NCBI GenBank assembly: GCA_030829955.1
Contig: JAURNY010000018.1
Coordinates: 94,377-158,376 of the forward strand
DNA from: Gammaproteobacteria bacterium
GTDB taxonomy: Bacteria > Pseudomonadota > Gammaproteobacteria > Eutrophobiales > Eutrophobiaceae
Length of the DNA: 64,000 nucleotides
Direction of reading: 5' to 3'
In this document: positions 32,162 through 62,674 of the stretch, one piece after another
Layout: each line of letters begins with the position of its first letter
Position numbering within the stretch: position 1 is the first letter of the stretch
Program-made: the position numbers and the translations under genes
Notes under the pieces: generated by a model
Database searches by the model: none
What the model saw: the letters and a program-made list of their open reading frames with translations, nothing else
Told to the model about the DNA's origin: nothing

Positions 32162-32205
32162 ATCTCTCTTCCTAACTCCTTATTCTTTACGCTTCATGAC
32201 TCAAT

Positions 32206-32460
32206 TTATTTAGTACGTTTCGGAAACACAGTAATCTGTTTTGCAACACCATTTTCTGATTGTCCACCAACAATCATTTTTATAGGTTTCCCCTGCAAAG
32301 CAAAATTATCTATATAATTTATTTCTTGAGTTGTATGTTTATTGAATTCAACTATCGGACTATCTTTCGACGTTGTTACAATCTCATTAAATTCCGAATC
32401 ATTCGCTTGCAATGAGCTGAATAAAAATAAACAAGCTGTGCCAGCGAACACTTTAAGCAT
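32206..32460 (-). CDS. small secreted protein paralogous to the C-terminal module of the upstream CpaB-like protein
   Basis: 84 aa with a signal peptide. Its C-terminus KMIVGGQSENGVAKQITVFPKRTK parallels the C-terminus of the 704-aa protein (ELIIGGSSEDGVAKSQKVALPVETK), with visible DNA-level similarity. Start abuts the upstream stop. Confidence 0.55.
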   Translation of the reverse strand: MLKVFAGTACLFLFSSLQANDSEFNEIVTTSKDSPIVEFNKHTTQEINYIDNFALQGKPIKMIVGGQSENGVAKQITVFPKRTK

Positions 32461-43888: not shown

Positions 43889-44731
43889 ATGAAGACTTTA
43901 ATTAACACTAAAAACATGATTTTTATAGTTTTTTTAGCCATAACAGGTGTTGTTTTCGCTGGAGTTGCCCCAGAAGATTTTCGAGAAAAAAAATCTGACG
44001 AAGCTTGGGAAAAGAATTTGCGTAAGCAAAATTTTCAGGACAGGAAAATTATTATAGGTGTTGAGCAGAATATACTTGAAGTTAAAGCACCTTACACCGC
44101 AGAAGATGCGACAGTCGTTCCCGTATCTATACACACTAAAATTGATCAAACCCCGGAACGCTATATCAAGAAAATGCACATTTTTGTGGATAAAAATCCT
44201 TTGCCATTAGTAGGTGTTTTTGAATTCACGCCAGATAGCGGTAAAGCAGATCTCGCCATGCGAATTCGTGTCGATACGTTTAGTTATGTACGTGCCGTAG
44301 CGGAACTGAATACAGGTGAATTGTACATGGCGAAAAACTTTGTAAGGGCAAAAGGCGCTTGCTCCGCACCGCCACCAGCCAGTATGGAAGATTCAAAGAA
44401 ACTGCTGGGTAAAATGAAAATGAAGATGTTAGGGAATCTCAAGTATGGTGAACCTAATTTAATGCAAGTTAAAGTGCGTCATCCAAACATTACGGGTATG
44501 GCGCCATTAAAGATTGGTTCACATGTTATTCCCCCCGCATTTTATATGGATACTTTTGAAGTTACATATAATGATAAGCCGATTGTTAAAGCATTATTAA
44601 CGTTTTCTATCAGTATGGACCCGGCATTGCGTTTTTTCTTTGTGCCTAGAAAAGAAGGTGTTATGACAGTGAAAGGTACAGATACCAAAAAGAATGTCTT
44701 TAGTTCAACCTATGAAGTCAAAACCACATAA
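43889..44731 (+). CDS. fused SoxY-SoxZ-like sulfur carrier protein
   Basis: 280 aa with a signal peptide. N-terminal SoxY-like region with the Cys in a GACSAPPP linker, and a C-terminal SoxZ-like Ig fold (VKVRHPNITGM...PAFYMDTFEVTYNDKPIVKA). Confidence 0.6.
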   Translation: MKTLINTKNMIFIVFLAITGVVFAGVAPEDFREKKSDEAWEKNLRKQNFQDRKIIIGVEQNILEVKAPYTAEDATVVPVSIHTKIDQTPERYIKKMHIFVDKNPLPLVGVFEFTPDSGKADLAMRIRVDTFSYVRAVAELNTGELYMAKNFVRAKGACSAPPPASMEDSKKLLGKMKMKMLGNLKYGEPNLMQVKVRHPNITGMAPLKIGSHVIPPAFYMDTFEVTYNDKPIVKALLTFSISMDPALRFFFVPRKEGVMTVKGTDTKKNVFSSTYEVKTT

Positions 44732-45091
44732 GTGATAAGTTTCAGTATGTTTTGGAAATAATTATTAAAGGGGCAATATCATCCTGTTAATATTGATGAA
44801 CTTGAAGTCTGGGCTCAGGAAACCGAACCACAAGTGGAAAAAGGTATTCGTTCAGTTGAAGGCAAATGGAGGGTTATACTGGCCTCATATGAAAACTAGC
44901 AGATCGTATTTCAACAGCAAAATCAAATATTACAAGTAGGTATGGCGATTGATATTGATCAGGAATATATTAATTAACAAGCTTGGTTTAGATTAGTGAT
45001 AGTAAGTTACAGAGCAGATGCAAGTTTATTTTAGATGAAATGAAATCTACTTATGGTTTTTGCCAGCCCGCGCATAAGTAAGCGATAATAT

Positions 45092-46441
45092 ATGACTGAT
45101 ACGAAACATAATAAAGAATTTGAATATGTGGCAGGTAATGGCTTATTAGATAGACGTTTGTTTTTAAAGCGCGGCATTCAGTTTGGAACTATTACTGCGC
45201 TTGCTTCAACCGTCACTCAACTATTACAAGCAGAAACTGAAACAGCATTTAATTCGGCACGTCCTCCCTGGATGACTCAACCCGGAAAACCATTTTCTTT
45301 GTACGGTAAACCATCCGAATTCGAGGATGATGTAGTCCGGTTCCCAACGCAAAATGAATCAGTTCTTGGCAATGGAGTTTCGTGGTCGCCACTTCATTTA
45401 ATGGAAGGCACGATTACACCAAACGGTTTACATTTCGAAAGACATCATAATGGCATACCGCAAATTGATCCTGCCAAACATAAATTATTAATTCATGGCA
45501 TGGTAAAGCAGGATCTTTTTTTCAGAATGGAAGATTTATACCGTTACCCCATGCAATCAAAGATTTGTTTTATCGAATGTGGCGGTAATAGTAATGCGGG
45601 TTGGAATAGTTCACCCTCGCGTAGTGAAGCAGGTTATTTTAATGGCATGGCATCAAATAGTGAATGGACAGGTGTGCCGTTAAAGGTGTTACTTGCAGAA
45701 GCGGGTTTGAAATCTTCTGCAAAATGGTTGATTGCCGAGGGTGCTGATGCCTTTAATATGCAGATGTCGATTCCAATTGAGAAAGCTATGGATGATGCAT
45801 TCCTTGCCATCTATCAAAACGGTGAAAAGATTCGTCCCGAGCAAGGTTATCCATTGCGTTTAATTGTTCCCGGTTGGGAAGGCGTATTAAATGTTAAATG
45901 GTTACGACGTTTGATGATTACTGATCGGCCTGTGATGGCAAGAAATGAAACATCGCGTTATACCGAATTACAACCCGATGGTAAGGCAAGACAATTTACA
46001 TTTTTTATTGAAGCTAAATCATTAATTACATCACCATCTGCCAATATGTTACTTAAACAACCGGGTCTTTATCAGATTACGGGTTTGGCATGGTCGGGTC
46101 GCGGCAAGATTAAAAAAGTCGATATCTCTGCTGATGATGGCAAAACCTGGGCAGAAGCAGAGTTACAACAACCCGTATTGGATCGTGCCTTCACCCGTTT
46201 TCGTTTGCCCTGGCAATGGAATGGTAAAAAGACAGTGATTAAGAGTCGTGCAATGGATGAAACAGGATATGTACAACCAGAACGAACCGAACTTATTAAA
46301 AAACGCGGTAAACATGGTTTTTATCATTACAATGCCATTACGAATTGGCAAATAGATGAAGATGGCTATGTTTCTCATGTCTATGATAAAAATGAAAATC
46401 AAACACTCTCTGACAATAGTATTGATAGCAGTTGGGATTAA
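45092..46441 (+). CDS. soxC: molybdopterin sulfite/sulfane dehydrogenase catalytic subunit (SoxC/SorA family), Tat-exported
   Basis: 449 aa. Twin-arginine signal (LDRRLFLKRG), sulfite-oxidase Moco domain and C-terminal dimerisation domain. Confidence 0.8.
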   Translation: MTDTKHNKEFEYVAGNGLLDRRLFLKRGIQFGTITALASTVTQLLQAETETAFNSARPPWMTQPGKPFSLYGKPSEFEDDVVRFPTQNESVLGNGVSWSPLHLMEGTITPNGLHFERHHNGIPQIDPAKHKLLIHGMVKQDLFFRMEDLYRYPMQSKICFIECGGNSNAGWNSSPSRSEAGYFNGMASNSEWTGVPLKVLLAEAGLKSSAKWLIAEGADAFNMQMSIPIEKAMDDAFLAIYQNGEKIRPEQGYPLRLIVPGWEGVLNVKWLRRLMITDRPVMARNETSRYTELQPDGKARQFTFFIEAKSLITSPSANMLLKQPGLYQITGLAWSGRGKIKKVDISADDGKTWAEAELQQPVLDRAFTRFRLPWQWNGKKTVIKSRAMDETGYVQPERTELIKKRGKHGFYHYNAITNWQIDEDGYVSHVYDKNENQTLSDNSIDSSWD

Positions 46442-46937
46442 TCTTGTCTTTGCAGAAACAATGCAAGGTCCAGGCTTAGGACATGCTGCGACTATTGACG
46501 AAGTCGCAAAATGGAATATCAGTGTTTTTCCTGATGGTGAAGGCTTACCAGAAGGAAGGGGCTCAGTTAGCGAAGGTGAGGTGGTTTACAATACACAATG
46601 TGTGGGGTGTCATGCTCAAGGTGGTATAGGTTCTGCAGTAGGTGATCAACTTGCTGGCGCACAAATGGAATTAACTAGTGATTATCCTGAAAAAACTATT
46701 GGCAAATATTGGCCTTATGCAACAACTGTGTTTGATGTTATTCGTCGATCTATGCCGATGACGACTCCCGGATCATTAACTGATAACGACGCGTATGCTG
46801 TGACGGCTTATCTTTTGTATTTGAATAATTTGATTGATGTGAATGCGGTGATAGATAAGTCATCCTTACCAAAGGTTAAGATGCCGAATGAAGATGGGTT
46901 TGTGAAAGTTTATGAAGTGAAGGAGACGAATAAATAG
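46392..46937 (+). CDS. mono-heme c-type cytochrome (SorB / short SoxD-like partner subunit)
   Basis: The track ORF starts at 46356 with a Met cluster. Proposed start is the internal ATG at 46392 (MKIKHSLTIVLIAVGINLVFA signal peptide). Single CVGCH heme motif. Overlaps the soxC 3' end. Confidence 0.65.
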   Translation: MKIKHSLTIVLIAVGINLVFAETMQGPGLGHAATIDEVAKWNISVFPDGEGLPEGRGSVSEGEVVYNTQCVGCHAQGGIGSAVGDQLAGAQMELTSDYPEKTIGKYWPYATTVFDVIRRSMPMTTPGSLTDNDAYAVTAYLLYLNNLIDVNAVIDKSSLPKVKMPNEDGFVKVYEVKETNK

Positions 46938-46980: not shown

Positions 46981-48072
46981 TTATTTACTCAATATCGATT
47001 TTAATGTGTCTATAAAACGTTTGACATCATCAGCAGTCATTTCGCCCATGCATGATATCCGGAACATGGCTTTAGCAAAGGCGCCTTGTCCTGCATAGAT
47101 AATAAAACCCGCTTCTTTCAGTTTGTCATGCAAGTTGTCATAACTAACATTTTCAGGCAAATGAAAGGCATTTAATACACATGATGATTCTTCTAACTCC
47201 ATATAAGGTTTAATTCCATTTTCAATTAAACCCTTTCTTACTTGATTCATACGTTGCCAATACAATTTATGCCTTGCTTGCCAACCGCCATTTTCGCTTA
47301 ATTCATCCAGTGCTTCAGCAAGAGCATAGAAGGTTTGTATCGATTGGGTAAATGGTGTGCCATTGGCATCCTGATTTTTTAAATAGGTCACTAAATCAAG
47401 ATAAAGTGTTCTGGCTGGTGTTGCAGACATTTGACTAATTCCTTCACGATTACCAATAACAAATGATGTGCCTGGCACGCCATGTAAACATTTGTTCGCC
47501 GTTGCTGCACAGGCTGCAAGGTTCCATTCATGAAACTTTATTTCTTCCGCACCAAAGCTACTCACAGCATCCAGTAAAATAGTGGCATTGCTATTATATT
47601 GTTTGCATAGCCTGGCAACAGCATCAATATCATTTAAGCGGCCACTTGTAGTTTCATGATGAACGATAGCGATGTGTGAAAACGCTTTTTCATAATTGAG
47701 TTCACCCTCGATAAGTTTTAGATCGAGAGACTGACCCCATTCATGATGAACAATTTTGTGATTGATACCATGTATTTTGGCAATTTTAGTAAGACGTTCA
47801 CCGTAAACCCCGTTTTCGATGATTAAAACCTTGCCATGTGCTGGCACAAAACTCGTCATCATCGCTTCCATAGCTGATGTGCCAGAGCCGGTAAATAGAA
47901 TACTTGCCCAATCTTTATTATCTAATTTATATACATCAAGTAAATCAGTGCGTATCTTGCTTTGTAATTCAATAAACTCCTGTTCACGATGACAAAGGTC
48001 GGGTTTTAACAATGCCTGCCGTACTCGTTCACTCAATACAACAGGACCGGGATTCATTAATATTTTTTTCAT
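46981..48072 (-). CDS. phnW: 2-aminoethylphosphonate:pyruvate aminotransferase
   Basis: 363 aa. Class V aminotransferase. Position downstream of ppd and ppm matches the canonical AEP biosynthetic operon. Confidence 0.8.
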   Translation of the reverse strand: MKKILMNPGPVVLSERVRQALLKPDLCHREQEFIELQSKIRTDLLDVYKLDNKDWASILFTGSGTSAMEAMMTSFVPAHGKVLIIENGVYGERLTKIAKIHGINHKIVHHEWGQSLDLKLIEGELNYEKAFSHIAIVHHETTSGRLNDIDAVARLCKQYNSNATILLDAVSSFGAEEIKFHEWNLAACAATANKCLHGVPGTSFVIGNREGISQMSATPARTLYLDLVTYLKNQDANGTPFTQSIQTFYALAEALDELSENGGWQARHKLYWQRMNQVRKGLIENGIKPYMELEESSCVLNAFHLPENVSYDNLHDKLKEAGFIIYAGQGAFAKAMFRISCMGEMTADDVKRFIDTLKSILSK

Positions 48073-49226
48073 TAGAACTTACTCCCTATCTGATGCATAG
48101 CACGTTGCAAAACTTCAACAGGTAGCACATCTGGTCGCGGCAAATCATCTATTGTACCCGCTTTGATCTTGATATGTCCGAAAGCAGGGCCTTCATTATT
48201 GGTTGAGGCAAATAGTTCATCAATGATTGATAATTGGTTACCTGAAAGACTAAGACCATAACCACTGGCTTCAGCAACTTTAGCAAAATCAATATTAGCC
48301 GCAACCGTTGCTTGTGCTCCGGTTGAGTCATGTACTTCATTATCCAGCAGGATATGAATCAAATTATTACCGGCATAACTACCAAGTGTTGCGAAGTTAC
48401 CCATACGCATTAAACCTGCACCATCACCATCTATGATGACCACTTTCAAATTAGGTCTTGCCAGCGCGACACCTAAACCAAGTGAAGAAGCGCAACCCAT
48501 TGAACCGACCATATAAATATGATTGTGTCGATCATCAATCGCATAAAGTTCTCGGCCAGTAAATCCAGTCGTAGCAATAACTAATGAATTGTTAATCGGA
48601 GTATGTTCAATGATCTTTTTTAAAACCGTATTTCGATCAGCAAGATCAATTTGTTCATCGAAAGAATACCGAAGTTCTTTTTTGCGATTGCGAATATCAG
48701 TAACCGGATTCTTTTTTAATATATTTTTTTTAACTGTACCTTTTTCCATAATAAAGGCATAAGGGCGTTGTTCTTTTTCCATATGGTCCATCGCACGTTT
48801 CAGCGCTGGTTGAATATCTTTCGCATCTTTGGGAAATATTTCCCATGGCACATGCATGAGATCAAATAATTTTTCTGTAATTTGACCCATCAGTTCATGT
48901 TGTGGTTCATCCTTTAAACCGAGTTGGCCTCGATGTGTAGTAATAATTAAAAAAGGAATTCGAAAGACATAGGATAATGATGTAATTGGACTAACTGCAT
49001 TCCCTAAACCGGAGTTTTGCATCATCACGATTGAACGCTGACCACCAATCGCAGCGCCTGCTGCAGTTGCTAATGCATCACCTTCGTTAGTAGATGAAAC
49101 ATATTCGAGAGAATCGTCATTAATGACGTAGTTTATAAAAGGTGTCAGGAAAGAGCAGGGGACGCCTGTATAACGTGTAAAACCCAGCTCGCGAGCAGCT
49201 TCGACAAATTCTTCAGCTTCGATCAT
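48072..49226 (-). CDS. ppd: phosphonopyruvate decarboxylase (TPP-dependent)
   Basis: 384 aa. TPP-binding motif [10 protein letters not shown]...NN...[10 protein letters not shown]. 1-nt and 4-nt overlaps with neighbouring genes. Confidence 0.85.
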
Positions 49227-50839
49227 GCTGTAAAATCACCTGCGCGATTAATATCATCCAGCGAATTAACATCCAGCCAATGTCCATCAATATAATGCAC
49301 ATTAATCGGTTTACCTTTTTCAATCAGATGATTGAGTAAATCAGGAATAGTGAGTTGATTAAAGTCATCGCGTTTGCGTAATTCCTTTAATGCTTTTGTA
49401 ATCCATTTTTTACCTTGTTTGCGAATACGCAGCATACCTATCCAGTAACCGGATGGTTTATTTCTGTCTGATTGGCGTGCTAGTTTTTTCAATAACACAT
49501 CCTGCATAAAGGGGTTTCGATCATCCTTCTTGCTACAAAAAGCAAGGTCAGGTGAACCGGAAAGATTAGGATTATCCAGTGCTGAATCGACAACTACTAC
49601 TATTTCCCCTGAGCTTTCGAGTAAATCACGCATAATATAACCACGGAATAACAGGTCGCCATAGAAAACCAGCATGTCATCACTAAAGTCTTTTTCTGCA
49701 CACGCGAATGATGTTAATTCATCAGAATTTTTAAATTGTTTATTAATGCGTTTATTAATGCCGGGAATATTGATTGCATTAGCTTTATAACCTGCAATAA
49801 CAGTCGTGTTATTAATACCCAGTTTTTTAAGTTCATCAATAGAACGGCGAAGTAATGTTTTTCCGCCAATATTAATCATTGTCTTGGGTTTATCCTCGGT
49901 CAGTTCATATAGTTCACTGCCACGACTCGCCGCAAGAACAATCGCATTAATATTTGACTGCTGACTTAGATATCGATCCTGTGCTTGTTTTAATTCATCT
50001 GCACCCTGTAATTCAAAGATATGATTAACTGTTGCAATTTGATCTTCCACATCCACTAATGATTCAAACTCAAAGATTTGGTTGCTAATTTTTTCCATCG
50101 CTGTAATTGATGCGCGAATCATATGATTTGCCCAGATCACCAGATTAATACCTGCTTCACGAAAGACATCGGTTGGGGTGCTGTAGTATTTGGTTGGTAC
50201 AATAACTAATGGACATCGCCCTGCCCATTCTTTTGCAAAGGCAAGCACTTCATCAGGGCGTGATAATTTACTATGAATTAAAATGCCATTAGCACCTGCT
50301 TTTCTATAAGCTTCCGCACGTTTTAATGCTTCATCCATTCCCCAGCCAGCAATCAGGGCTTCTACACGTGCAACAATACAAAAGTCATCATCACGCTGAC
50401 TATCTTTACCGGCTTTGATTTTGCCACAAAATTCATCAATATTTGCCAATGGTTGTTTCTCGCCATCGATAAAACTATTGGTTTTGGGAAATTGTTTATC
50501 TTCAATACAAACACCGGCGATATCACGTTGTTCAAGCTTCATTACCAGTCGTCGCATATTATTAAAGTTGCCATAACCGGTATCACCATCCAGCAATATC
50601 GGAATATTGGTGACATCCGACATAAACTCAAGCATGTCGACAACCTGTGTCCAACTGGCTTCATTACTATCACGCACACCAAATTGTGCCGACATGGATA
50701 AACCACTTCCCCAAACGCCTTTGAAACCGGCATTTTCAACAATACGTGCCGACATTCCGTTGTGTGCTTCCATAATGAATTCGAGCTTATTTGACTCGAG
50801 TAAATTACGCAGTTGTTTGGTTTTTTTTGTTTTAGCCAT
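49223..50839 (-). CDS. phosphoenolpyruvate phosphomutase fused to a C-terminal nucleotidyltransferase (PntC-like phosphonate cytidylyltransferase)
   Basis: 538 aa. Residues 1 to ~290 are Ppm/isocitrate-lyase superfamily ([11 protein letters not shown]...). Residues ~300-538 are a nucleotidyltransferase fold ([14 protein letters not shown]...GGKTLL). Confidence 0.8.
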
Positions 50840-50850
50840 TTAATTCGTTT

Positions 50851-51582
50851 TTATATGTTAGGTAATATTTCATTTTGGGCCCGTGTAATATCTTCCGGAA
50901 AATCTATTTCAATCCATGCCAGACTAGTGATGTCTTCAACTGAAAATTTTTCCGGTGCTTCTAGCAAGCAATCACGTATTGCTTCTTCATAAGGTATTGA
51001 TGAGTCATCTAGTTTTAAATAATCATCAATTTTATCAATCATCATTTGTGCGATATCGCGATTGAATTTGAAAAAACCCACTGATTCACCTTGAGTCTCA
51101 AATTTTAATGATGCATCAACTTTCTTTCTAAATTCATTGATATGACCGTTACTATCAATACAAACTTTCACCGGTTCATCACCAGGAATAAAATCTTTAT
51201 CAATTAATAAACAATTTTCATGAGTTGATTTTATCAGGCGTTTAAGAATGTCAGGGTGATAAAGTACATCGGCATCCATTAGTATCATGTTCTCATCCCT
51301 GACCATGATGTCTTTGGCATAGGCTAGACTAATCAAGCTGCCTTCCTGAAATCTCGGATTAAGAATGAAGTGTAAATTATTCTCTGTTTGTAAATGTGAC
51401 TGAATTACTTCGGCCTGATAACCGACGACTATAGTGATATCTTGAATGCCATTTTGCTTTAATAGTTTTATATGACGTTGCATCAGACTGATAGCGCCAA
51501 ACTCCATCAGTGATTTGGGCTTATTGTCTGCGGAAGAACCAAGTCGATTTCCCATACCCGCTGCCAGTATGATTGCCTGCAT
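50851..51582 (-). CDS. LicC-like sugar-phosphate/phospho-base nucleotidyltransferase (second, stand-alone)
   Basis: 243 aa. N-terminal MQAIILAAGMGNRLG (NTP-transferase G-loop). First gene of the AEP operon. Confidence 0.75.
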   Translation of the reverse strand: MQAIILAAGMGNRLGSSADNKPKSLMEFGAISLMQRHIKLLKQNGIQDITIVVGYQAEVIQSHLQTENNLHFILNPRFQEGSLISLAYAKDIMVRDENMILMDADVLYHPDILKRLIKSTHENCLLIDKDFIPGDEPVKVCIDSNGHINEFRKKVDASLKFETQGESVGFFKFNRDIAQMMIDKIDDYLKLDDSSIPYEEAIRDCLLEAPEKFSVEDITSLAWIEIDFPEDITRAQNEILPNI

Positions 51583-54241: not shown

Positions 54242-54317
54242 TGGTGCCCTGAGCAGGAATCGAACCTGCGACCTATCGCTTAGGAGGCGATTGCTCTATC
54301 CACTGAGCTACCAGGGC
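54242..54317 (-). tRNA. tRNA-Arg (anticodon CCU)
   Basis: The reverse complement folds as a 76-nt cloverleaf: GCCCTGG acceptor, D-arm TAGCTCAGTGGATAGAGCA, anticodon loop CTCCTAA, T-arm GCAGGTTCGATTCCTGC, 3' CCA encoded. Confidence 0.85.
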
Positions 54318-54397: not shown

Positions 54398-55846
54398 ATG
54401 TTGCTTAGCCCTATAATCCTTGCTGGTGGCGTTGGAACACGTCTTTGGCCACTTTCACGGGAACACTATCCAAAACAATTCATAAATCTGATTAATGAAA
54501 AATCCATGTTGCAAAACACTTTAAACCGTTTGCGAGGACTGGAGAATTCTATCGAGGTATCGTCGCCACTGATTGTTTGTAATGAAGTGCACCGTTTTCT
54601 GGTTGCAGATCAATGCGAAGAAATCCAACAATCTTTGGACTCAATCATTCTTGAAAGTGTTGGCCGTAATACAGCGCCGGCGTTAACTATTGCTGCGTTA
54701 AAACTCACTCAGGCACATGATGATGTAATGATGTTGATGATGCCGGCAGATCATGTCATTAAAAATATTGCCATATTTCAGCAAGCTATTTTAGTTGCCA
54801 GCAACTATGTAGAAAAAGATTATTTATTTACCTTTGGTATTTCACCTGATTATCCAGATACAGGTTACGGTTATATTCATTTTGACAAGGAAAAAGACAA
54901 AATTAATGATTTAACTGTTAATGCGGTTCTTGGTTTTAAAGAGAAACCTAATAAAGAAACGGCAAAGCAATATATCATTGCCGGTGATTATTTATGGAAT
55001 AGCGGTATCTTTATGATGAAAGCCTCTGTCTGGTTAAAAAAAATGGAACAATATAATCAGGATATAGTTACATCCTGTCGCGAAGCTATAAATAAAGGAG
55101 CAGTAGATAGTCAGTTTTTACGTCTTGATGCCAAAGCATTTGCAGATTGTCGAAGTGAATCCATTGATATTGGTGTCATGGAAAAATTACTGGCTGATTA
55201 CTCAGAACAAGTACTAACTATTCCTATCGACATGGGGTGGTCTGATATGGGTGCCTGGTCTTCGATATGGCAGCATGGTGAGAAAGATGCTAATAATAAC
55301 TGTGTGGATGAATATGCCTTGGCGATTGATACGAATAATAGTTTGATTAGATCTGACGGCAGGCTATTAGCTGTAATTGGTTGTGATGATCTAGTTATTG
55401 TCGATACCGCTGATGTCACACTGGTGGTAGATAAAAATAAAACTCAGGATGTTAAAAAGGCTGTAGAACAATTAAAAGCAAATAATCGTAGCGAATTCCT
55501 GGAGCATGTTGTTGTACATCGTCCTTGGGGAACATATCAATCAGTCGAACAAGGCGATAATTTTCAGGTTAAAAAAATTGTAGTCAAGCCAGGCAAAAAA
55601 CTTTCATTGCAAATGCATCATAAGCGCGCTGAACATTGGGTTGTTGTTAAAGGAATTGCAACAGTGACTCGTGATGATGATGTATTTGAATTAAAGGAAA
55701 ATGAATCAACCTTTATCCCACTAGGAGCAAAGCATCGTCTGGAAAATGCAACTTCTGAACCATTGGAGATAATCGAGGTTCAGTCCGGCAGTTATCTTGG
55801 TGAGGATGATATTGTTAGATTTGATGATGACTTCGGACGAAGTTAA
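54398..55846 (+). CDS. manC: bifunctional mannose-1-phosphate guanylyltransferase / mannose-6-phosphate isomerase
   Basis: 482 aa. N-terminal NTP-transferase (ILAGGVGTRLWPLS) and C-terminal cupin PMI domain (HHKRAEHWVVVKG). Confidence 0.88.
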   Translation: MLLSPIILAGGVGTRLWPLSREHYPKQFINLINEKSMLQNTLNRLRGLENSIEVSSPLIVCNEVHRFLVADQCEEIQQSLDSIILESVGRNTAPALTIAALKLTQAHDDVMMLMMPADHVIKNIAIFQQAILVASNYVEKDYLFTFGISPDYPDTGYGYIHFDKEKDKINDLTVNAVLGFKEKPNKETAKQYIIAGDYLWNSGIFMMKASVWLKKMEQYNQDIVTSCREAINKGAVDSQFLRLDAKAFADCRSESIDIGVMEKLLADYSEQVLTIPIDMGWSDMGAWSSIWQHGEKDANNNCVDEYALAIDTNNSLIRSDGRLLAVIGCDDLVIVDTADVTLVVDKNKTQDVKKAVEQLKANNRSEFLEHVVVHRPWGTYQSVEQGDNFQVKKIVVKPGKKLSLQMHHKRAEHWVVVKGIATVTRDDDVFELKENESTFIPLGAKHRLENATSEPLEIIEVQSGSYLGEDDIVRFDDDFGRS

Positions 55847-55860
55847 CCCTCTACAAAAAT

Positions 55861-56541
55861 ATGATTTCTATTGTTATTCCTGTATTAAATGAAGCAAAGG
55901 AAATCGAAACGCGATTAAAATCGTTTCAAAAGTTAAGACAAAACGGAAATGAAATAATTCTTGTTGATGGTGGAAGCTTAGATGATACTTTTCATTTAGC
56001 ACAAGTCTATGTAGATAAATCTCTGATAAGTAGTAAGGGTAGAGCCAGACAAATGAATGCCGGTGCTAGAGTTGCCGCTGGTGATTATTTATTATTTTTA
56101 CACCTTGATTCTCATCTTTCGACACAAGCATTGATTGATATAGCAGAGATAAACAGTCTATCTATCTGGGGTTTCTTCAGGATTAAATTAAGTGGTGAAG
56201 ATAAAGTGTTTCGCTTGATTGAAAGAATGATGAGTCTTCGTTCAAAATTTACATCTATTGCTACCGGTGATCAGGGACTATTTATCAGTAAGCAATTATT
56301 TGATGAAATTAATGGCTATCCAGATATTGAACTGATGGAAGATATTGCAATATGCAACATCTTGCGCAAGAAAAAAAAGCCGGTCATGTTAACTAATATA
56401 ATTACAACATCTTCTCGTCGATGGGAAAAACGGGGTGTGATTAAAACAATATTATTTATGTGGTGGTTACGCTTGCTTTATTTTGCAGGTGTGTCAGCAG
56501 ACTATCTTAATAAGTATTACTATCCTGAAGATAATGGATGA
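55861..56541 (+). CDS. family-2 glycosyltransferase (TIGR04283-like)
   Basis: 226 aa. GT2 N-terminus ISIVIPVLNE with a DGGS motif. Confidence 0.75.
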   Translation: MISIVIPVLNEAKEIETRLKSFQKLRQNGNEIILVDGGSLDDTFHLAQVYVDKSLISSKGRARQMNAGARVAAGDYLLFLHLDSHLSTQALIDIAEINSLSIWGFFRIKLSGEDKVFRLIERMMSLRSKFTSIATGDQGLFISKQLFDEINGYPDIELMEDIAICNILRKKKKPVMLTNIITTSSRRWEKRGVIKTILFMWWLRLLYFAGVSADYLNKYYYPEDNG

Positions 56542-57148
56542 TCTGTTAATCATCTTTAGTAAGTCTCCTGAAGCAGGCAAGGTGAAGACAAGACTCATGC
56601 CGTCGTATGGAAGAAGTTATAGTGCGACAATTCATCGCCGTTTGTTATGGCGAACATTGTCTGTTGCCAGACAATCGGACTTTTCTAATATAGAGTTGTG
56701 GGTTGGCGGTGATAGTAAACATCCGGAACTAGTAAGGATTTCTAAAGCATTTAATATGGATATTAATTATCAGCGAGGAAAAGATCTAGGCGAACGCATG
56801 TTTTATACAATCTCTCAATCACAGAAGCATTATAAGAATATAGTCTTAATAGGAACGGACTGTGCTGATTTGCAAGTAAAAGACTTAAATCTGGCTTTAC
56901 AGAAATTAACAAACAAGGTTGATGTTGTAATTGGACCTTCTAATGATGGTGGTTACTATCTGATTGGTATGAATTCAACATATCAGAAATTATTTGATGA
57001 TATTAACTGGGGAAGTGATGAGGTTTTGCAGCAAACTAGGCGAAATATTGAAAAATTAAAATTAAATTTATCAGAATTAAACCAGAGAAATGATGTTGAT
57101 GAAGAGCATGAAGTGGAAACGTATGTATTAAATTCTGATACTTATTAG
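56537..57148 (+). CDS. DUF2064 (TIGR04282-like) glycosyltransferase-associated protein
   Basis: The track ORF starts at 56483, but the likely start is the ATG at 56537 (MDDLLIIFSKSPEAGKVKTRL), overlapping the GT2 stop (ATGGATGA). DUF2064 pattern. Confidence 0.65.
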   Translation, partial: DDLLIIFSKSPEAGKVKTRLMPSYGRSYSATIHRRLLWRTLSVARQSDFSNIELWVGGDSKHPELVRISKAFNMDINYQRGKDLGERMFYTISQSQKHYKNIVLIGTDCADLQVKDLNLALQKLTNKVDVVIGPSNDGGYYLIGMNSTYQKLFDDINWGSDEVLQQTRRNIEKLKLNLSELNQRNDVDEEHEVETYVLNSDTY

Positions 57149-57403: not shown

Positions 57404-57494
57404 GGAGAGGTGTCCGAGTGGTTGAAGGAGCACGCCTGGAAAGTGTGTATACGGTTAACCCGTATCGAGGGTTCGAATCCCTCTCTCTCCGCCA
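57404..57494 (+). tRNA. tRNA-Ser (anticodon GGA)
   Basis: 91-nt class II tRNA: GGAGAGG acceptor, GTCCGAGTGGTTGAAGGAG D-arm, anticodon loop CTGGAAA, long variable arm, T-arm GGGTTCGAATCCC, CCA encoded. Confidence 0.85.
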
Positions 57495-57583: not shown

Positions 57584-58570
57584 TTATTGATAATCGTGTT
57601 CTTTAAACCAGTTGATTGCATCAATTAATCCTTTAGTTCCGGCTCTAGGATTATATCCCAGTATTGTTTTTGCTTTTTCACTTGTGAAATACATTTTTTT
57701 CTTCGCCATCAACACACTATCTACAGTTATGCGGGTTGACTTGCCGGTGATAGCGGCTATGCGCTCCATGCACCATGCGATTGGAATAATGAGATTATGA
57801 GGAAGTTGTATGCTAGGTGGATCAATATCTTCATGCAGACATATAAATTCCAGAATTGATGCTAATGTCATATTATCTCCTCCCAATATATAACGCTCAC
57901 CAATTTCACCTTTTTCCATTGCCAGTAAATGGCCTTCGGCAACATCATCTACGTGAACAATATTTAATCCGGTATCAACATAGGCAGGCATACGATGTTG
58001 AATAGTATCAAGCACAATCAAACCCGTTGGTGTCGGTTTAATATCGCCGGGTCCAACAGGTGTTGAAGGGTTTACAATCGTAATGGGCGCGGATTCTTTT
58101 TTTATTATTTCCTTTACTGATTCTTCTGCCAGATATTTTGAACGTTTATAATGCCCCTGCATATCGTCAAGCGTTGAAGGAGTAGTTTCATCAGCAGGTG
58201 TACCATCATCGTGCACCCCTAATACTGCCACACTACTGGTGTATACGATCTTGCTAATGGACTGTTCCAGCGCAGCCATCATTAATGCTTTGGTGCCATC
58301 AACATTTGTTTTATACATATTTTTTGGATCAGGGATCCAGAGCCGATAATCAGCAGCAATATGAAATAGATGATCACATCCTTTAACAGCTCGTTTCAAA
58401 GAAGGCTGGTCAAGTAAATCAGCTTCGATTACTTCCGTGTTAAGGTTGGAAAAGTTACGTTTATCTGACCCTTTGCGAACCATGGCACGAACTTCATAGC
58501 CCTTATTGAGCAATAATTTCAATACAGCAGAGCCAATAAAGCCATTTGCACCTGTGATTAATATTTTCAT
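57584..58570 (-). CDS. hpnA: NAD-dependent epimerase/dehydratase (hopanoid-associated sugar epimerase HpnA-like)
   Basis: 328 aa. Rossmann motif ILITGANGFIGS and a YxxxK catalytic motif. Adjacent to hpnN in the shc operon. The symbol is assigned from context. Confidence 0.65.
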   Translation of the reverse strand: MKILITGANGFIGSAVLKLLLNKGYEVRAMVRKGSDKRNFSNLNTEVIEADLLDQPSLKRAVKGCDHLFHIAADYRLWIPDPKNMYKTNVDGTKALMMAALEQSISKIVYTSSVAVLGVHDDGTPADETTPSTLDDMQGHYKRSKYLAEESVKEIIKKESAPITIVNPSTPVGPGDIKPTPTGLIVLDTIQHRMPAYVDTGLNIVHVDDVAEGHLLAMEKGEIGERYILGGDNMTLASILEFICLHEDIDPPSIQLPHNLIIPIAWCMERIAAITGKSTRITVDSVLMAKKKMYFTSEKAKTILGYNPRAGTKGLIDAINWFKEHDYQ

Positions 58571-58571: not shown

Positions 58572-61157
58572 TTAATGTTGCTGTCTTTCTTCCAGCCAGA
58601 TTAGAAAAGAGGGTAATACGATAACTGTTGCGAACATCATACATAACAAACCAATAGTCAGCATAATCCCCATGCTTGCTGTGCCAGCATGCTTTGAAAA
58701 GGCAAGGCTGCCGATACTGAAAATGGTGGTAAATGAACTGACCAATACGCCCCTGAATGCACTGGTTAAAAATAGATTTTTATCGTTTGCTTGATCTTCA
58801 CGAAAACGATTTACGATATGAATACCACTATCTACACCAATGCCAAGTAATAATGGTAATCCAATAATGTTAGCAAAATTTATGGGTTGATTAATCAACG
58901 CCATAGATGCCATAGAAAATAAGCTTCCAGTAAATAATGTGCCAAGGATTAATACGACATCAACTTTAGATTTAATAAGTATTAATAAAATTATTGTGAT
59001 GGCAATTAGTGCATAAAGTATTGCAGACTGGAATGACTTAATAACGGCAGCCCCAGCTTCAACATTGACAACAGGGGGGCCAATGATGGCATCGTCATGC
59101 TTTTGTAGTTCTCTAACAAACTCAATCATGGCATCATGATCATTGAGGTCTTTTTCCGGATATATTTCGAGTTTATAAAAACCTTTTTTATACCATCTGG
59201 CCTTGATTTCATCAGGCACATCAGATAATTCAACATTGGTAGCGGCAAGACCTGTTTCCAATAAATTGATGCTGTCAACAAAGTAATATAGTAAACGTTT
59301 TTCAATATCAATTAATTCTATCGGGTGATTAACCAAATATTCTAATTTTTTTTGTAAGTCAATTATTTGATCATTTTTCATCTCCAAAGGATACTGCTTC
59401 AACATGGATAATAAATTGTTAGTAATTTTTAAACGTTCATCATTTTTTATTGCCACACTTGATTGTGTCGGTAAAAGTGGACCCATCAAAATATTTAGAT
59501 CATCGACTATGAATAATTTCCCTTCTTGATTTTTGGGTACCAGATCATTTAGCCAGACAACATTGTTTACAATATCTATTGCTTCAAATTGTGATTTGGC
59601 GAGTTCAGCTCTAGCTTTATCTTTTTCCAATGTAACTACAAACCATGGAGAGGTTTCCTTATCTTTTAATAAATCCTGAAAGGTTTTAACTGATTCATTG
59701 TTCTGGTCTTGAAGATTAAGTGTGTTGCTATCAAATCGTAAATGATTGAGCGAAAAGCTTGCGACAATGATTAATATAGCCGTAATTACCAATATGGATT
59801 TATAGTTTTTATAAGGTAATTCACTTAAATAAAGTTTAATCTTCTCTGATGATGTACTTTTATCGGTTGCATCAGTTTTTTTCTCAAAACTTAGCAAGGC
59901 CGGTAGTAAGGTGAACGTATAAAATAAACTGACGAGCATGCCACAACCTGCTATCCAGCCAAGTTCCGCAACCCCTTGATAATCGGTAGGCATAAATGAA
60001 TAAAAGCCAATAGAAGTAGTTAATGCACATAAAAACAAGGTTCTGAAAATATTAATTGCGGCAAATCTTAATGCACTTTGTGTATTAAGATTATCTTTCT
60101 GAACCTCTCTAAAACGTAGGCATAAATGAATAGCAAAGTCGATTCCCAAACCAATATATAAAACTGCAAAGGCGACTGAAATAAGATTTAATACGCCGAC
60201 TGTGAACGCAGCCAAAGCAGTGGTGGCGATAAGACCTAGAATCAAAGTGATAATAGAGGAGAAAAATAACCATAATGAACGAAGTCCAATAATCAGCATG
60301 ATTGCCACCAAAATAATCGATGCGAGGATGGCAATAACATTTGCTTCGGCAACACTCTTTAATTCTTCATAAGCCAGAGCGGCGTTGCCACTTAGGCGAA
60401 TAGATGTTTTTCCTCCATCTTCCAGCCCAAGCCTATTAACTGTGTCATTGATATATCGAATAGCTATTTCGCCAGGCAGTAATTCATCCGGGTCTTTCAG
60501 TATTTTTGTAATAATAAATTCACGATAAACAGATTTATTTTTTGTGTCAGCTTGTAATAATGTTTGCCAGGAAAGACGATGCTCTTTTTCTTTGAGTGTT
60601 TTATTAAGTTCTGATAGGAGAATTGATAAATCAATTTCTTCACCATCTGCTTTTGCCACGAACACCTGCTCAAGCATATTAAAAAAACCACGGAGTGATT
60701 GATCAGATAATAAAGTACCTATAAATGGTTGTATTTTGGTAAGACGATTGGATAAATCATATAACTCATCTTCAGTCATAAAGAGAAATGCTGTTTCACG
60801 AAAAAAGGAAATCGCAGAAGGGAAATATATATCTTCGATCAAATAAGGTGACGCTTTCAAAGATGTATAAAGTTTCGTTGCATCCTCACGCGCCCTGTCA
60901 GGGGTGTCTGCCTCAATTACGATCAGAACATTATCAAGCGTTTCAGTAAATATATCCTCATACTTAATATCAAGCTGTCGCCATTTTAGATCTCTAGACA
61001 ACATATCTCTAGTGTCAGTGGTCATGCCAAGATGATTGACGATTAACCAGAGCGATAAGAGAGTAATTAAAGCAATTAAAACAAATACACCAAAACGAAA
61101 GCGCTGAATTATGGTGATCCAGCGTTCGATAAGATGGCTTATGCGATTATTATTCAT
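58572..61157 (-). CDS. hpnN: RND/MMPL-family hopanoid transporter HpnN-like
   Basis: 861 aa. Two sets of 6 TM helices, each preceded by a large periplasmic loop (RND/SSD architecture). Located in the shc operon. Confidence 0.75.
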   Translation of the reverse strand: MNNNRISHLIERWITIIQRFRFGVFVLIALITLLSLWLIVNHLGMTTDTRDMLSRDLKWRQLDIKYEDIFTETLDNVLIVIEADTPDRAREDATKLYTSLKASPYLIEDIYFPSAISFFRETAFLFMTEDELYDLSNRLTKIQPFIGTLLSDQSLRGFFNMLEQVFVAKADGEEIDLSILLSELNKTLKEKEHRLSWQTLLQADTKNKSVYREFIITKILKDPDELLPGEIAIRYINDTVNRLGLEDGGKTSIRLSGNAALAYEELKSVAEANVIAILASIILVAIMLIIGLRSLWLFFSSIITLILGLIATTALAAFTVGVLNLISVAFAVLYIGLGIDFAIHLCLRFREVQKDNLNTQSALRFAAINIFRTLFLCALTTSIGFYSFMPTDYQGVAELGWIAGCGMLVSLFYTFTLLPALLSFEKKTDATDKSTSSEKIKLYLSELPYKNYKSILVITAILIIVASFSLNHLRFDSNTLNLQDQNNESVKTFQDLLKDKETSPWFVVTLEKDKARAELAKSQFEAIDIVNNVVWLNDLVPKNQEGKLFIVDDLNILMGPLLPTQSSVAIKNDERLKITNNLLSMLKQYPLEMKNDQIIDLQKKLEYLVNHPIELIDIEKRLLYYFVDSINLLETGLAATNVELSDVPDEIKARWYKKGFYKLEIYPEKDLNDHDAMIEFVRELQKHDDAIIGPPVVNVEAGAAVIKSFQSAILYALIAITIILLILIKSKVDVVLILGTLFTGSLFSMASMALINQPINFANIIGLPLLLGIGVDSGIHIVNRFREDQANDKNLFLTSAFRGVLVSSFTTIFSIGSLAFSKHAGTASMGIMLTIGLLCMMFATVIVLPSFLIWLEERQQH

Positions 61158-61181: not shown

Positions 61182-61928
61182 TTAAACGCGAAAGACGTAT
61201 TCTTTATCAGTCAGACGTTCGATATCCGGAGGATAGCTTAATCTTTTGTCATCATAATATTTACGACGTTTGTCACCTTCAGCAGCAGCATTATATGTCA
61301 CGTATAAAACACGTCGTTTATCGTTGGTTAGATTTGGCCCAGAGCGATGAGGCACAAATGAATCAAAGAAAACAGCATCGCCTGGTTGAGTTGGAATAGA
61401 TTCATAATCAAGTGAATTTTCTTCCAGTGGCTTCCATTTTTCTCCGATCAATCCTCTATCGTGGTATCCGCCTGCCATTTCAAGACAGCCGTTTTCGATA
61501 GTGGAGGCATCTATACTTATCAGAGCGGTGATATGTAATTTGCCATATTTATCCCAGCCAGCCTGAACATCCTGATGAGCTTTAAAACCATCTCCGCCCG
61601 GCATTTTGAAGTTGATTTTGTCTTTAAATAATACAGAGTCATCATGAAATAATTGAGATGTGATCTGTTGAATTTCACTTTTGGTAAATAACTCACTAAA
61701 GCCTGCATGATAAGGTTCAATGTCTTCCATACGGGAGAGGATGCGTCGATTATTGTCGAGTCTACTCTGTTCAAAATACATCATGTATTTTCCGGGGACT
61801 TCCGGATAGTTTGTTACTTCATCTGTCCATGCAGTAATTTTTTTCATGGTTTCTGCGCCATAAAGTCCGCGGATAACCAGATAGCCGGATGATTTAAATT
61901 GTTCAATCTGTTCGTTACTTAATTCCAT
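61182..61928 (-). CDS. phytanoyl-CoA dioxygenase (PhyH)-family Fe(II)/2-oxoglutarate oxygenase
   Basis: 248 aa. PhyH-like fold with an HxD...H facial triad (HQDVQ ... PHRSGPN). Confidence 0.7.
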   Translation of the reverse strand: MELSNEQIEQFKSSGYLVIRGLYGAETMKKITAWTDEVTNYPEVPGKYMMYFEQSRLDNNRRILSRMEDIEPYHAGFSELFTKSEIQQITSQLFHDDSVLFKDKINFKMPGGDGFKAHQDVQAGWDKYGKLHITALISIDASTIENGCLEMAGGYHDRGLIGEKWKPLEENSLDYESIPTQPGDAVFFDSFVPHRSGPNLTNDKRRVLYVTYNAAAEGDKRRKYYDDKRLSYPPDIERLTDKEYVFRV

Positions 61929-61951: not shown

Positions 61952-62674
61952 CTAAGGTTGCATATTATAGAGAAAATGCCTGTCTTTTAAATCGGGCGCA
62001 ATAAGTTTCATAGTGTTTATCGCTTTTTTAAAAGCCCGTGCCAATATTAATAATGATGGAATCTGTGCTGGATTAAATATACAGGATAATACAAAACTTA
62101 TTGGCTTGGGCTTACCAAGATGATCAGTATGTTTGATGACAGCTGCAGGTATTGCCGCTATTGCTTCATCACATATGGTTCTGATTGCGATAAAATCCAG
62201 TTCCATCTCCTTTGCAAGTCCTGCAATAGCAGCACTTTCCATATCAACAGCATCGGCACCAGATTGTTGATGCAGTTTTACTTTGTCTCTTGGTGATGAA
62301 CAAATAATTTCATCAGAATAGATTGAGCTGCTAACAATACGATAACTATCTGAACTTAAATGTATTAAACATTGTTCTTGCCAATGGGCACTACATGGGT
62401 ACTCATTATCATTAGAAATAATTTTATCTGCGATAATAATATCACCTGAATGTAATCCTTCATTTAATCCGCCTGCTACTCCCCAGCTAACTAGCGCTTC
62501 GGCCCCTTGCTTGATTAATAACGCAGCGGCATGTAACGCACGATCATGACCGATGCCACTTAGGCATAACAACATATTATCGTTAAGAGAACAGGGCGTA
62601 TTTAGTGTTAACGAATGGGGTACAAGACATGCCGCTTCATCCGGCAAGGCTGCGATGATGCCTATCTTTTTCAA
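61952..62674 (-). CDS. hpnG: hopanoid-associated phosphorylase HpnG (PNP/UDP nucleosidase family)
   Basis: PNP_UDP_1 fold (IGIIAALPDEAA...SWGVAGGL...DMESAAIA). The track ORF reaches 62788, but that overlaps the shc 3' end by 118 nt. A TTG at 62674-62672 overlaps the shc stop (TTGA) and is the more likely coupled start, though uncertain. Confidence 0.65.
   Translation of the reverse strand: MKKIGIIAALPDEAACLVPHSLTLNTPCSLNDNMLLCLSGIGHDRALHAAALLIKQGAEALVSWGVAGGLNEGLHSGDIIIADKIISNDNEYPCSAHWQEQCLIHLSSDSYRIVSSSIYSDEIICSSPRDKVKLHQQSGADAVDMESAAIAGLAKEMELDFIAIRTICDEAIAAIPAAVIKHTDHLGKPKPISFVLSCIFNPAQIPSLLILARAFKKAINTMKLIAPDLKDRHFLYNMQP

Follow-up and report, generated by a model that had tools for sequence, protein, structure and literature searches.

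The closest described counterparts of the genes considered here come from surveys of phosphonate biosynthesis. According to Rice et al. (2019; PMC6697681), fusion proteins make up 59.5% of true phosphoenolpyruvate (PEP) mutases (Ppm), and 33% of all of these enzymes carry the nucleotidyltransferase (NTase) domain PF12804. In the clusters of A. rimae, O. uli and T. denticola the ppm-fused NTase is accompanied by another NTase one or two genes away, and the characterised 2-aminoethylphosphonate (AEP) cytidylyltransferases (PntC), Ari1348 and Tde1415, both lack a Ppm fusion (Rice et al. 2019, PMC6697681). Li and Horsman (2022; PMC8942020) report that the most abundant group of clusters containing an AEP transaminase (AEPT) is Burkholderiales_CDP-OH, which corresponds to Group 1 of Yu et al. 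(2013) and whose product is uncharacterised. Here we describe an AEP operon at positions 46981–51582 of a 64,000 nt stretch of an uncultured gammaproteobacterial genome (positions 94,377–158,376 of JAURNY010000018.1, assembly GCA_030829955.1; hereafter the window), in which a Ppm–NTase fusion is combined with a second, stand-alone NTase. The operon is likely to be the head-group module of a phosphonolipid-type cluster, in which the stand-alone enzyme would make CMP-AEP and the acceptor would be a lipid alcohol.

The AEP operon and its distribution

The operon consists of four co-directional open reading frames (ORFs) of 243, 538, 384 and 363 aa on the minus strand, and Pfam and NCBIfam assignments confirm the four-gene AEP set that the original prediction had read from the DNA letters at this position. 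The first gene (50851–51582) encodes a stand-alone NTase of the LicC/PntC family, with matches to PF12804 and PF00483, which we refer to as NT243. The second (49223–50839) encodes the Ppm-NT fusion, and domain mapping of its 538 residues, which had been suggested as a check, places PEP_mutase at residues 10–255 and a nucleotidyltransferase domain, NTP_transf_3, from residue 299. The Ppm domain (residues 1 to about 285; 49985–50839) is predicted to form the C–P bond by converting PEP to phosphonopyruvate, and the NT domain (residues about 291–538; 49223–49969) is modelled with a PntC/LicC-like fold and has a rewired pyrophosphate (PPi) loop. The third and fourth genes encode a thiamine pyrophosphate (TPP)-dependent phosphonopyruvate decarboxylase (Ppd/AepY; 48072–49226; TIGR03297, with TPP_enzyme_N and TPP_enzyme_C) and an AEP aminotransferase of the AEPT/AepZ/PhnW family (46981–48072; TIGR03301, Aminotran_5).

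The overlaps of 1 to 4 nt originally claimed between these genes are present at two junctions, fusion/ppd (4 nt, ATGA) and ppd/aept (1 nt, TAATG), but not between NT243 and the fusion, which are separated by an 11 nt gap. The ATG of NT243 is preceded by the Shine-Dalgarno sequence AAGAGG. Counts of predicted promoters and terminators between 46.5 and 54.5 kb are at or under shuffled expectation and are uninformative; the sole convincing hairpin in this region lies outside the operon, between the CBS gene and pgi. An Rfam search of the whole window returned two tRNAs only, and no riboswitch or leader 5′ of the operon. As had been proposed, there is no acceptor transferase within the operon itself.

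All three core enzymes score above curated equivalog cut-offs. The Ppm domain reaches 401.1 bits with TIGR02320 (cut-off 319.55), against 251 bits with Pphn_pyruv_hyd, which is under the cut-off of 374 for that model, and 148 bits with prpB. Ppd scores 432.5 bits with TIGR03297 (cut-off 312.5) and AEPT 388.7 bits with TIGR03301 (cut-off 360.8), its scores with the catabolic-type models TIGR02326 and NF010006 being under their cut-offs. A methylisocitrate lyase had been named as the other possible identity of the mutase half. However, the motif EDKXXXXXNS, which by the definition of Rice et al. (2019, PMC6697681) separates Ppm from its relatives in the isocitrate lyase superfamily, is present at residues 113–122 (50474–50503), and the domain aligns end to end with the PEP mutase of Mytilus edulis (1M1B) at E 9e-129, methylisocitrate lyases reaching only about 1e-21 in the same PDB sequence search. 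The metal- and substrate-binding segments RDSNE, LLDxDTG, ARVEA and HSK are also conserved relative to 1M1B. The mutase half is therefore genuine, and with Ppd and AEPT, each at equivalog level, the claim that this is a biosynthetic AEP cluster stands. PhnW-type transaminases also degrade AEP, and a catabolic role was considered and rejected given the presence of Ppm and Ppd and the fact that TIGR03301 is the model scoring above its cut-off. There is no PhnX, PhnA or C-P lyase near the operon.

The same arrangement is found well beyond this genome. A scan of one genome per GTDB species gave 588 confirmed relatives, and the best 80 loci were analysed. By tblastn, 77 of them have the genes in the order NT243, Ppm-NT, Ppd, AEPT, which is far from what chance would give, and two of the three exceptions are truncated by a contig end. 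Among the 80, the carriers comprise uncultured Gammaproteobacteria with the labels Thiotrichaceae or Legionellales, one metagenome-assembled genome labelled Planctomycetota, and many Nostocales, including Nostoc, Chlorogloeopsis fritschii PCC 6912, Brasilonema and Tolypothrix; the same cluster was drawn in a paper on lichen Nostoc (PMC5987646). Proteins identical to those of the window are found on metagenome contigs at ENA and JGI. Burkholderia cenocepacia and Mycetohabitans rhizoxinica have the same gene order at 41–75% identity (in B. cenocepacia, by tblastn, 41% for the NTase, 75%/47% for the fusion, 55% for Ppd and 51% for AEPT, with similar values in Mycetohabitans), and Roseomonas marmotae has the same genes clustered, with the NTase inverted and HpnL between Ppd and AEPT.

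Two NTases are thus the rule in this clade. In one locus (L091, 6819–9212) they are even joined in a single 797 aa protein (P0070), a natural triple fusion of NT243, Ppm and the rewired NT domain, which is followed by Ppd, AEPT, DXS, HpnH, HpnB, MlaC and MlaA. The fusion of Ppm to an NTase, which the original prediction described as known but uncommon, is indeed known; it is not uncommon, given the proportion of all Ppm that carry PF12804 and the presence of at least 8000 homologues at E ≤ 1e-20, the best 120 of which are 67–100% identical. Elsewhere (L090, 10001–19700), ppm, ppd and aept are replaced by an insert encoding an ECF sigma factor, FecR, an IS110 transposase and a TonB-dependent receptor, leaving an orphaned NT243 homologue between pgi and dxs-hpnH.

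The two nucleotidyltransferases

The PntC consensus described by Rice et al. (2019, PMC6697681) is GXG(T/S)RX4-8PK, and in Tde-PntC each of the substitutions R15A, K25A and K153A leaves less than 10% of activity (Rice et al. 2019, PMC6697681). NT243 has the signature LAAGMGNRL at residues 6–14, PK at residues 22–23 and K153, so that the consensus region reads G9-M-G-N-R13-X8-P22-K23, with Asn where the consensus has Thr or Ser. R13, K23 and K153 align to R15, K25 and K153 of Tde-PntC (HMMER alignment to 6PD1), and all three are invariant among 36 homologues (alignment A2). The best sequence match in the PDB is Tde-PntC (6PD1), over the full length and with E 6e-14; PntC scores 56 bits over the full length, and LicC 47 bits over the N-terminal 120 residues only. 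The AlphaFold2 (AF2) model of NT243 (pLDDT 93.6) gives a similar result, the top seven Foldseek matches in the PDB all being PntC chains of 6PD1 and 6PD2 (TMq 0.84–0.88, root-mean-square deviation 2.1–2.3 Å, E about 1e-20), followed by the next-best fold family at 3e-16 and LicC at 1e-15.

Because the three catalytically important residues are kept and the best sequence and fold matches in the PDB are both PntC, NT243 is probably an AEP cytidylyltransferase. Its linkage to ppm in 77 of 80 loci and its fusion in P0070 further indicate that it is a constituent of the phosphonate module and not an addition from another pathway. Homologues of NT243 carry the database names 'phosphocholine cytidylyltransferase family' and 'choline kinase', which are family-level labels.

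The NT domain fused to Ppm is only 24% identical to NT243 (BLASTP of the pair). It matches PF12804 with E 4e-8 and TIGR03992 over residues 298–525, and its AF2 model, made with 33 homologues, has a pLDDT of 85, falling to 59 in the signature loop. The top fold match of this model is PntC 6PD2 (TMq 0.76–0.78), with LicC, inositol-1-phosphate cytidylyltransferases (IPCT) and ST0452 close behind. As modelled, the C-terminal half has the nucleotidyltransferase fold originally proposed for it, and is not separable as PntC from LicC, IPCT or ST0452. A profile-profile comparison of the two NTase alignments was discarded, as that of the fused domain (alignment A1) included the triple fusion P0070.

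There are several departures from the PntC pattern in the fused domain. First, its signature is LAASRGSEL (residues 302–310; 49910–49936), in which Glu replaces the consensus Arg. The pattern S-(R/K/Q)-G-x-x is present in all 120 close fused homologues, nearly always without the Arg (two read Gly-Arg-Leu, yet keep the S-R-G start), and in a joint MAFFT alignment the Arg is absent from 18 of 20 representatives of Ppm-fused clusters, down to about 30% identity; GxGxR is kept in the largest group of stand-alone homologues (21/37). Second, although a Lys (in LLKKL) aligns pairwise with Lys153, this column is not conserved in A1. Third, the position that contacts the amine of AEP (Glu104 in Tde-PntC) is an invariant Tyr or Phe located within a (Y/F)GD motif like that of GlmU and ST0452.

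The domain nonetheless retains the PK lysine, the (Y/F)GD aspartate and a C-terminal WxD motif; in its own numbering K35, D111, D134 and D239 are invariant and R22 is nearly so. Across the 80 loci its median identity is 55%, compared with 48% for NT243 and 59% for AEPT. Judged from these alignments, the fused domain is under purifying selection despite the loss of the Arg, and we conclude that it is a putatively functional but rewired paralogue, which most likely still binds nucleotide and either activates a second substrate or regulates or couples Ppm. The assumption that it is the PntC of the cluster is not borne out: the characterised PntCs are not fused to Ppm, the equivalent of Arg15 is lost and that of Lys153 is not conserved.

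Hopanoid genes, proposed pathway and alternatives

The AEP operon is 6 kb from a set of hopanoid genes, SHC-HpnG-PhnY*-HpnN-HpnA, that are located upstream on the same strand. The nearest is HpnA, a hopanoid-associated epimerase/dehydratase-like protein (57584–58570, minus strand; TIGR03466, 474.6 bits against a cut-off of 367.65), followed by the hopanoid RND transporter HpnN (58572–61157, minus; TIGR03480, 823.9 bits against 751.85), a PhyH-family Fe(II)/2-oxoglutarate (2OG) dioxygenase that is PhnY*-like (61182–61928, minus; PF05721 and NF052437), an HpnG-like nucleosidase/phosphorylase (61952–62575, minus; TIGR03468, 167.7 bits, just under the cut-off of 187.1) and squalene-hopene cyclase (SHC; minus, from 62671 to past the window end at 64000; SQHop_cyclase_N and SQHop_cyclase_C, 648 aa in the full contig). 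The window thus contains a hopanoid cluster, with SHC, HpnN and HpnA above cut-off or clear and HpnG just below. In the full contig (L085) the order is SQS_PSY, SHC, PNP_UDP_1, PhyH, MMPL, Epimerase, squalene synthase lying past the window end. The order from SHC through HpnA to NT243 and AEPT is the same as in relatives, except that HpnA and NT243 are set apart by pgi, the CBS gene and a manC-GT2-DUF2064 block.

Two other features of these flanks can be recorded. Among L005–L059, most gammaproteobacterial relatives have one or two Ser/Thr kinase genes with a cyclic-nucleotide (cNMP)-binding domain flanking pgi, on the opposite strand between pgi and NT243; both are lost from the window, where pgi is 221 nt from NT243. 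Just past position 64000 (L085, 1–5891), and divergent to the squalene synthase that heads the hopanoid genes, there is a polyketide synthase (PKS) of at least 2226 aa (KS-AT-ACP-KR-DH) together with an NMO/FabD-type enoyl reductase, a set that resembles a polyunsaturated fatty acid (PUFA) synthase or a heterocyst-glycolipid synthase.

Hopanoid genes are common around the module in other genomes. All ORFs within 5 kb of it were clustered across the 80 loci and the resulting families scanned, and the most recurrent neighbours are HpnH (37/80 loci), DXS (36/80), an HpnB-like family 2 glycosyltransferase (GT2; 29/80), an MlaC/HpnM-like protein (21/80), HpnA (15/80), a CDP-alcohol (CDP-OH) phosphatidyltransferase (13/80, and 14 within 10 kb), a HalD-like 2OG oxygenase (13/80) and LPG-synthase-TM/HpnL (8/80). 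At least one hpn gene is present within 10 kb in 47 of the 80 loci, and in 37 of the 48 where the flanks are adequate. The fullest layout (L054, L083 and L076) reads SHC, HpnG, PhnY*-like, HpnN, CDP-OH phosphatidyltransferase, HpnA, HpnL, second CDP-OH phosphatidyltransferase, oxygenase, NT243, Ppm-NT, Ppd, AEPT, DXS, HpnH, HpnB, MlaC. HpnN, CDP-OH phosphatidyltransferase and HpnA are directly upstream of NT243 in L038, L054, L058, L062, L076 and L083, and L079 has HpnN and the phosphatidyltransferase there with no match to HpnA. In Mycetohabitans the seven-gene core is followed by dxs, an MMPL transporter, ispH and hpnH, and in Roseomonas marmotae the core is situated between an MMPL transporter and ispH-hpnH-hpnG-shc-hpnEDC.

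The PhyH protein of the window has as its best NCBIfam match the methylphosphonate hydroxylase model NF052437 (E 2e-58), at 198 bits against a cut-off of 500 and so at family level only. A PDB sequence search returned generic PhyH-family hydroxylases, leaving NF052437 as the sole basis for its relation to PhnY*. In cyanobacteria, the slot between the CDP-alcohol phosphatidyltransferase and NT243 holds an oxygenase, which is a PhnY*-like homologue directly upstream of NT243 in L068 and L069 and a HalD-like 2OG oxygenase (PF23169) in L061, L066 and L072; some gammaproteobacterial loci (L038, L054) have both families. Because the cyanobacterial slot 5′ of NT243 is occupied by one or other of these oxygenases, the PhnY*-like gene appears to belong to the phosphonate pathway, and its product is probably the hydroxylase of AEP, or of an AEP conjugate.

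We therefore favour a pathway in which the operon supplies a lipid head group. By family assignment, the Ppm domain would convert PEP to phosphonopyruvate, Ppd would convert this to phosphonoacetaldehyde, drawing the unfavourable Ppm equilibrium forward, and AEPT would form AEP by transamination. NT243, and not the fused domain, would then make CMP-AEP from AEP and CTP, as its sequence, fold and context suggest, and the PhnY*-like dioxygenase encoded 10 kb away probably hydroxylates AEP or a conjugate to give 1-hydroxy-AEP. A membrane-lipid alcohol would receive the phosphonyl head group from an enzyme of the CDP-alcohol-phosphatidyltransferase type, encoded elsewhere in the genome. The transfer would fall, in relatives, to one or two CDP-alcohol phosphatidyltransferases together with HpnL (LPG-synthase-TM), set among hopanoid genes; because these genes sit between hopanoid genes, the acceptor may be diacylglycerol or, plausibly, a hopanoid side chain. 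The lipid might finally be exported or organised together with hopanoids. The end product is likely to be a phosphonolipid, and is perhaps hopanoid-linked.

Several observations weigh against this pathway. First, NT243 has Asp, as LicC does, at the position of the amine-contacting Glu104 of Tde-PntC, so that the specificity residues do not discriminate, and whether it prefers AEP, hydroxy-AEP or phosphocholine is ambiguous from its sequence. Second, locus L004 has Ppm-NT, Ppd and AEPT without NT243 within 10 kb, and the fused domain may thus retain activity, or suffice alone, in some genomes. Third, no CDP-alcohol phosphatidyltransferase, LicD, HpnL or HpnH is present in the window or the approximately 8 kb past its end, and the closest relatives (L005–L017, L087) likewise have no CDP-OH transferase within 10 kb. 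Within the 64 kb window this agrees with tblastn using representatives of the neighbour families, which found no transferase, HpnH, HpnB, DXS, HpnL or HalD-like oxygenase, and with a six-frame regular-expression search for the CDP-alcohol phosphatidyltransferase motif, which found none. Fourth, the seven-gene core of B. cenocepacia has no match to the hpn query proteins within 15 kb (tblastn), so that the hopanoid linkage is frequent, not universal. Finally, none of the carriers of this type of cluster has yielded an isolated lipid that bears a phosphonate (PMC8942020).

The alternatives differ mainly in what they assign to the two NTases. One, which we consider unlikely, is that both are active for one lipid, NT243 making CMP-AEP and the fused domain activating the other partner for the CDP-alcohol phosphatidyltransferase(s), with 1-hydroxy-AEP or a phospho-sugar-like hopanoid intermediate as candidate substrates. 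The fused domain does resemble sugar-1-phosphate NTases in its YGD motif and in the Tyr/Phe that stands in place of an acidic amine-contacting residue, and it is under selection with its four invariant residues. Moreover, L038, L054, L058, L062 and L069 each have two CDP-OH phosphatidyltransferase paralogues, two oxygenase families are associated with the module, and HpnG is annotated as a phosphorylase. This proposal is nevertheless purely inferential, and no report of a characterised Ppm-fused PF12804 domain or its substrate was found in the open-access papers searched. The PPi-loop Arg is missing from the domain and the loop is modelled at low confidence, and the window has no phosphatidyltransferase of the required type.

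It is distinctly unlikely that the fused domain is non-catalytic, acting as a regulator or scaffold that binds CTP or CMP-AEP and gates Ppm or channels intermediates, with NT243 as the sole activating enzyme. The domain has lost the equivalent of Arg15 and does not conserve that of Lys153, mutation of either of which reduces Tde-PntC to less than 10% activity, the loss of the Arg is common to nearly all Ppm-fused homologues, and a canonical NTase is almost always encoded alongside. Set against this are the invariant PK lysine, (Y/F)GD aspartate and WxD motif, the presence two positions upstream of the lost Arg of a basic residue (R/K, sometimes Q) that could compensate for it, and L004, where no NTase other than the fused domain is encoded within 10 kb of ppm.

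The original prediction took the Ppm-fused domain as the PntC and the extra NTase as the activator of a second head group, for example phosphocholine. Pfam and NCBIfam scans of nearly every window ORF of 100 aa or longer (all but three short ORFs inside a Tad pilus cluster) found no choline kinase, choline transporter, LicD, CDP-alcohol phosphatidyltransferase or sulfatase-type transferase. The search for LicD or phosphotransferase genes that had been suggested was equally empty in the window and among conserved neighbours, and licA, licB and licD are absent from the 30 most conserved neighbour families of the 80 loci. The names given to NT243 homologues, the Asp shared with LicC, the NT243-free cluster of L004 and the PntC top fold match of the fused domain could each be cited in its favour. 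However, the NTase pair is the norm, in 77 of 80 loci and physically fused in P0070, NT243 is nearer to PntC than to LicC in sequence (56 against 47 bits) and in fold (E 1e-20 against 1e-15), it is the fused domain that has lost the Arg15 equivalent and does not conserve that of Lys153, and the active AEP enzymes in the PntC-defining clusters are those not fused to Ppm. Nothing supports the phosphocholine branch, and this division of labour is very improbable.

The genes that had been named as candidate acceptors are located, as described, about 3 kb away (2.8 kb) on the opposite strand, where they separate the AEP operon from the hpn genes. They are manC (54398–55846, plus strand; Pfam), a GT2 (55861–56541, plus; TIGR04283, 254 bits against a cut-off of 182) and DUF2064 (56534–57148, plus; TIGR04282, 197 bits against 134), and the block is bracketed by tRNA-Arg(CCT) (54242–54317, minus) and tRNA-Ser(GGA) (57404–57494, plus). 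The bracketed block may be an insertion or rearrangement point; no integrase or repeats were seen at it, so a mobile insertion is unsupported. GT2 and DUF2064 occur together again no more than 10 kb from the module in 7 of 80 loci (L017, L035, L036, L040, L049, L052 and L084) and manC in one (L030). Thus the position of the block is as predicted, an acceptor role for it is weakly supported, and its membership of the phosphonate system is uncertain. TIGR04283 and TIGR04282 are both named 'arsenosugar biosynthesis glycosyltransferase', and no radical-SAM ArsS-like partner is present in the window; DUF2064 has a CofC/MobA-like fold and is a third nucleotidyltransferase-like protein near the operon.

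Although phosphonoglycan is a known fate of AEP (e.g. PS B of Bacteroides fragilis) and these three genes lie close to the operon, we regard it as highly unlikely that AEP is destined for a glycan rather than a lipid, with manC, GT2 and DUF2064 building or decorating the acceptor sugar, as the pair is found in so few loci, always on the opposite strand with pgi between, which fits inherited synteny of one sub-lineage, two tRNA genes bracket the block in the window, no LicD-type or other phosphotransferase accompanies it, the window contains no polysaccharide export or polymerase genes, and hopanoid and lipid genes are linked far more consistently. The hopanoid genes and CDP-alcohol phosphatidyltransferases form a stronger context than the manC block.

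A more specific version of the lipid pathway is that the AEP module and the hpn genes constitute, together with the PhnY*-like oxygenase, one system attaching AEP or hydroxy-AEP to the C35 hopanoid polyol or ribosyl side chain, the two NTases activating both partners and the CDP-alcohol phosphatidyltransferase(s) and HpnL of relatives joining them. We offer this joint claim tentatively, and think it somewhat unlikely as a whole. Related ideas have been raised before: Nitrosococcus ppm genes beside terpene and hopanoid genes were called 'phosphonate-terpene' (PMC7285500) and gene cluster family GCF 731 a 'possible phosphonoterpene' (PMC8942020), Roseomonas was credited with an 'undiscovered terpene-phosphonate' (PMC8776678), and hpnL was drawn within the phosphonate cluster of lichen Nostoc (PMC5987646). 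In these cases the terpene-phosphonate is speculation, and no report of an isolated phosphonate-hopanoid or of any Group 1 product was found in the open-access papers searched. A recent hopanoid survey found HpnL enriched near shc with its function not known, and phosphonates are not mentioned there.

Were the joint claim true, phosphonylated bacteriohopanepolyol would be a lipid class never described, and it would become clear why the 'hopanoid-associated' HpnL belongs to the core of the Group 1 phosphonate cluster. With a hopanoid acceptor, the bacteriohopanepolyols used as biomarkers would also gain a class that contains phosphorus, and HpnL would gain a function. Several cultured carriers exist, so the lipid question is directly testable. 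Two points deserve follow-up. The first is the loss of the PPi-loop Arg from Ppm-fused domains: roughly one PEP mutase in three carries this domain, which is commonly taken to be a PntC, its systematic loss of this residue questions that assumption, and its biochemical role is an easily testable question. The second is the embedding of the module in hopanoid clusters in multiple lineages, namely Alpha-, Beta- and Gammaproteobacteria and Nostocales, together with CDP-alcohol phosphatidyltransferase and HpnL.

The remainder of the window includes three other gene sets. A Sox set (43889–46937, plus strand) is convergent to the AEP operon, the facing stop codons being only 43 nt apart. It is composed of a 280 aa ORF with SoxY and SoxZ domains, SoxC (TIGR04555, 592 bits) and, overlapping SoxC, a c-type cytochrome; SoxA, SoxX and SoxB are not in the window. 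The Tad/Flp pilus cluster (25420–38601, minus) encodes TadE/TadG-like proteins, two T2SSF proteins, a T2SSE ATPase that begins with an FHA domain, and a secretin, as well as an unusual 704 aa RcpC-like protein with DUF3659 repeats and a flagellar-hook D1-like segment. A partner-switching module (18370–20420, plus) consists of a GAF-SpoIIE phosphatase, an anti-sigma-type kinase (HATPase_c_2) and a STAS anti-anti-sigma protein.

Comparison with described phosphonate clusters

Among characterised enzymes, NT243 most resembles Tde- and Ari-PntC (Rice et al. 2019; 6PD1/6PD2), with which it shares the fold, the GxGxR-X8-PK signature, the Lys153 equivalent and adjacency to ppm, and the clusters of both, like the window, also encode a separate Ppm-fused NTase. 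The differences are that identity is only 22–24%, that NT243 has Asn for Thr/Ser and Asp at the Glu104 position, and that it is a stand-alone protein whereas the characterised PntC is fused to AEPT. A fused NTase of another kind is found in Fom1 of the Streptomyces fosfomycin pathway, where the NTase acts on a downstream phosphonate intermediate and not on the Ppm product (Rice et al. 2019, PMC6697681). Its domain is, however, N-terminal and belongs to PF01467, another fold family, and that of the window is C-terminal and PF12804-like.

At the level of gene context, the hopanoid-linked ppm clusters of Nitrosococcus, Roseomonas and lichen Nostoc have the AEP module beside shc, hpnH, hpnG, hpnN and isoprenoid genes. 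The window resembles them in having SQS, SHC, HpnG, HpnN and HpnA 6 kb upstream. It differs in that the gene sets are interrupted by pgi, the CBS gene and the tRNA-bracketed manC block, and in that HpnH, HpnB and DXS are not nearby.

Group 1 (Burkholderiales_CDP-OH) has the NTase, the Ppm-PF12804 fusion, Ppd and AEPT in the same order. Of its seven-gene core, the CDP-alcohol phosphatidyltransferase and the LPG-synthase-TM/HpnL are missing from the window. An Fe(II)/2OG oxygenase of the HalD-like family is adjacent to the Group 1 core; next to the operon of the window there is none, and the PhnY*-like PhyH protein is encoded 10 kb away among the hpn genes. A Ppm fusion accompanied by a second NTase is accordingly ordinary, as one of the most abundant types of phosphonate cluster has this layout as its standard, and the operon is an uncultured-gammaproteobacterial member of this known, abundant and already catalogued type.

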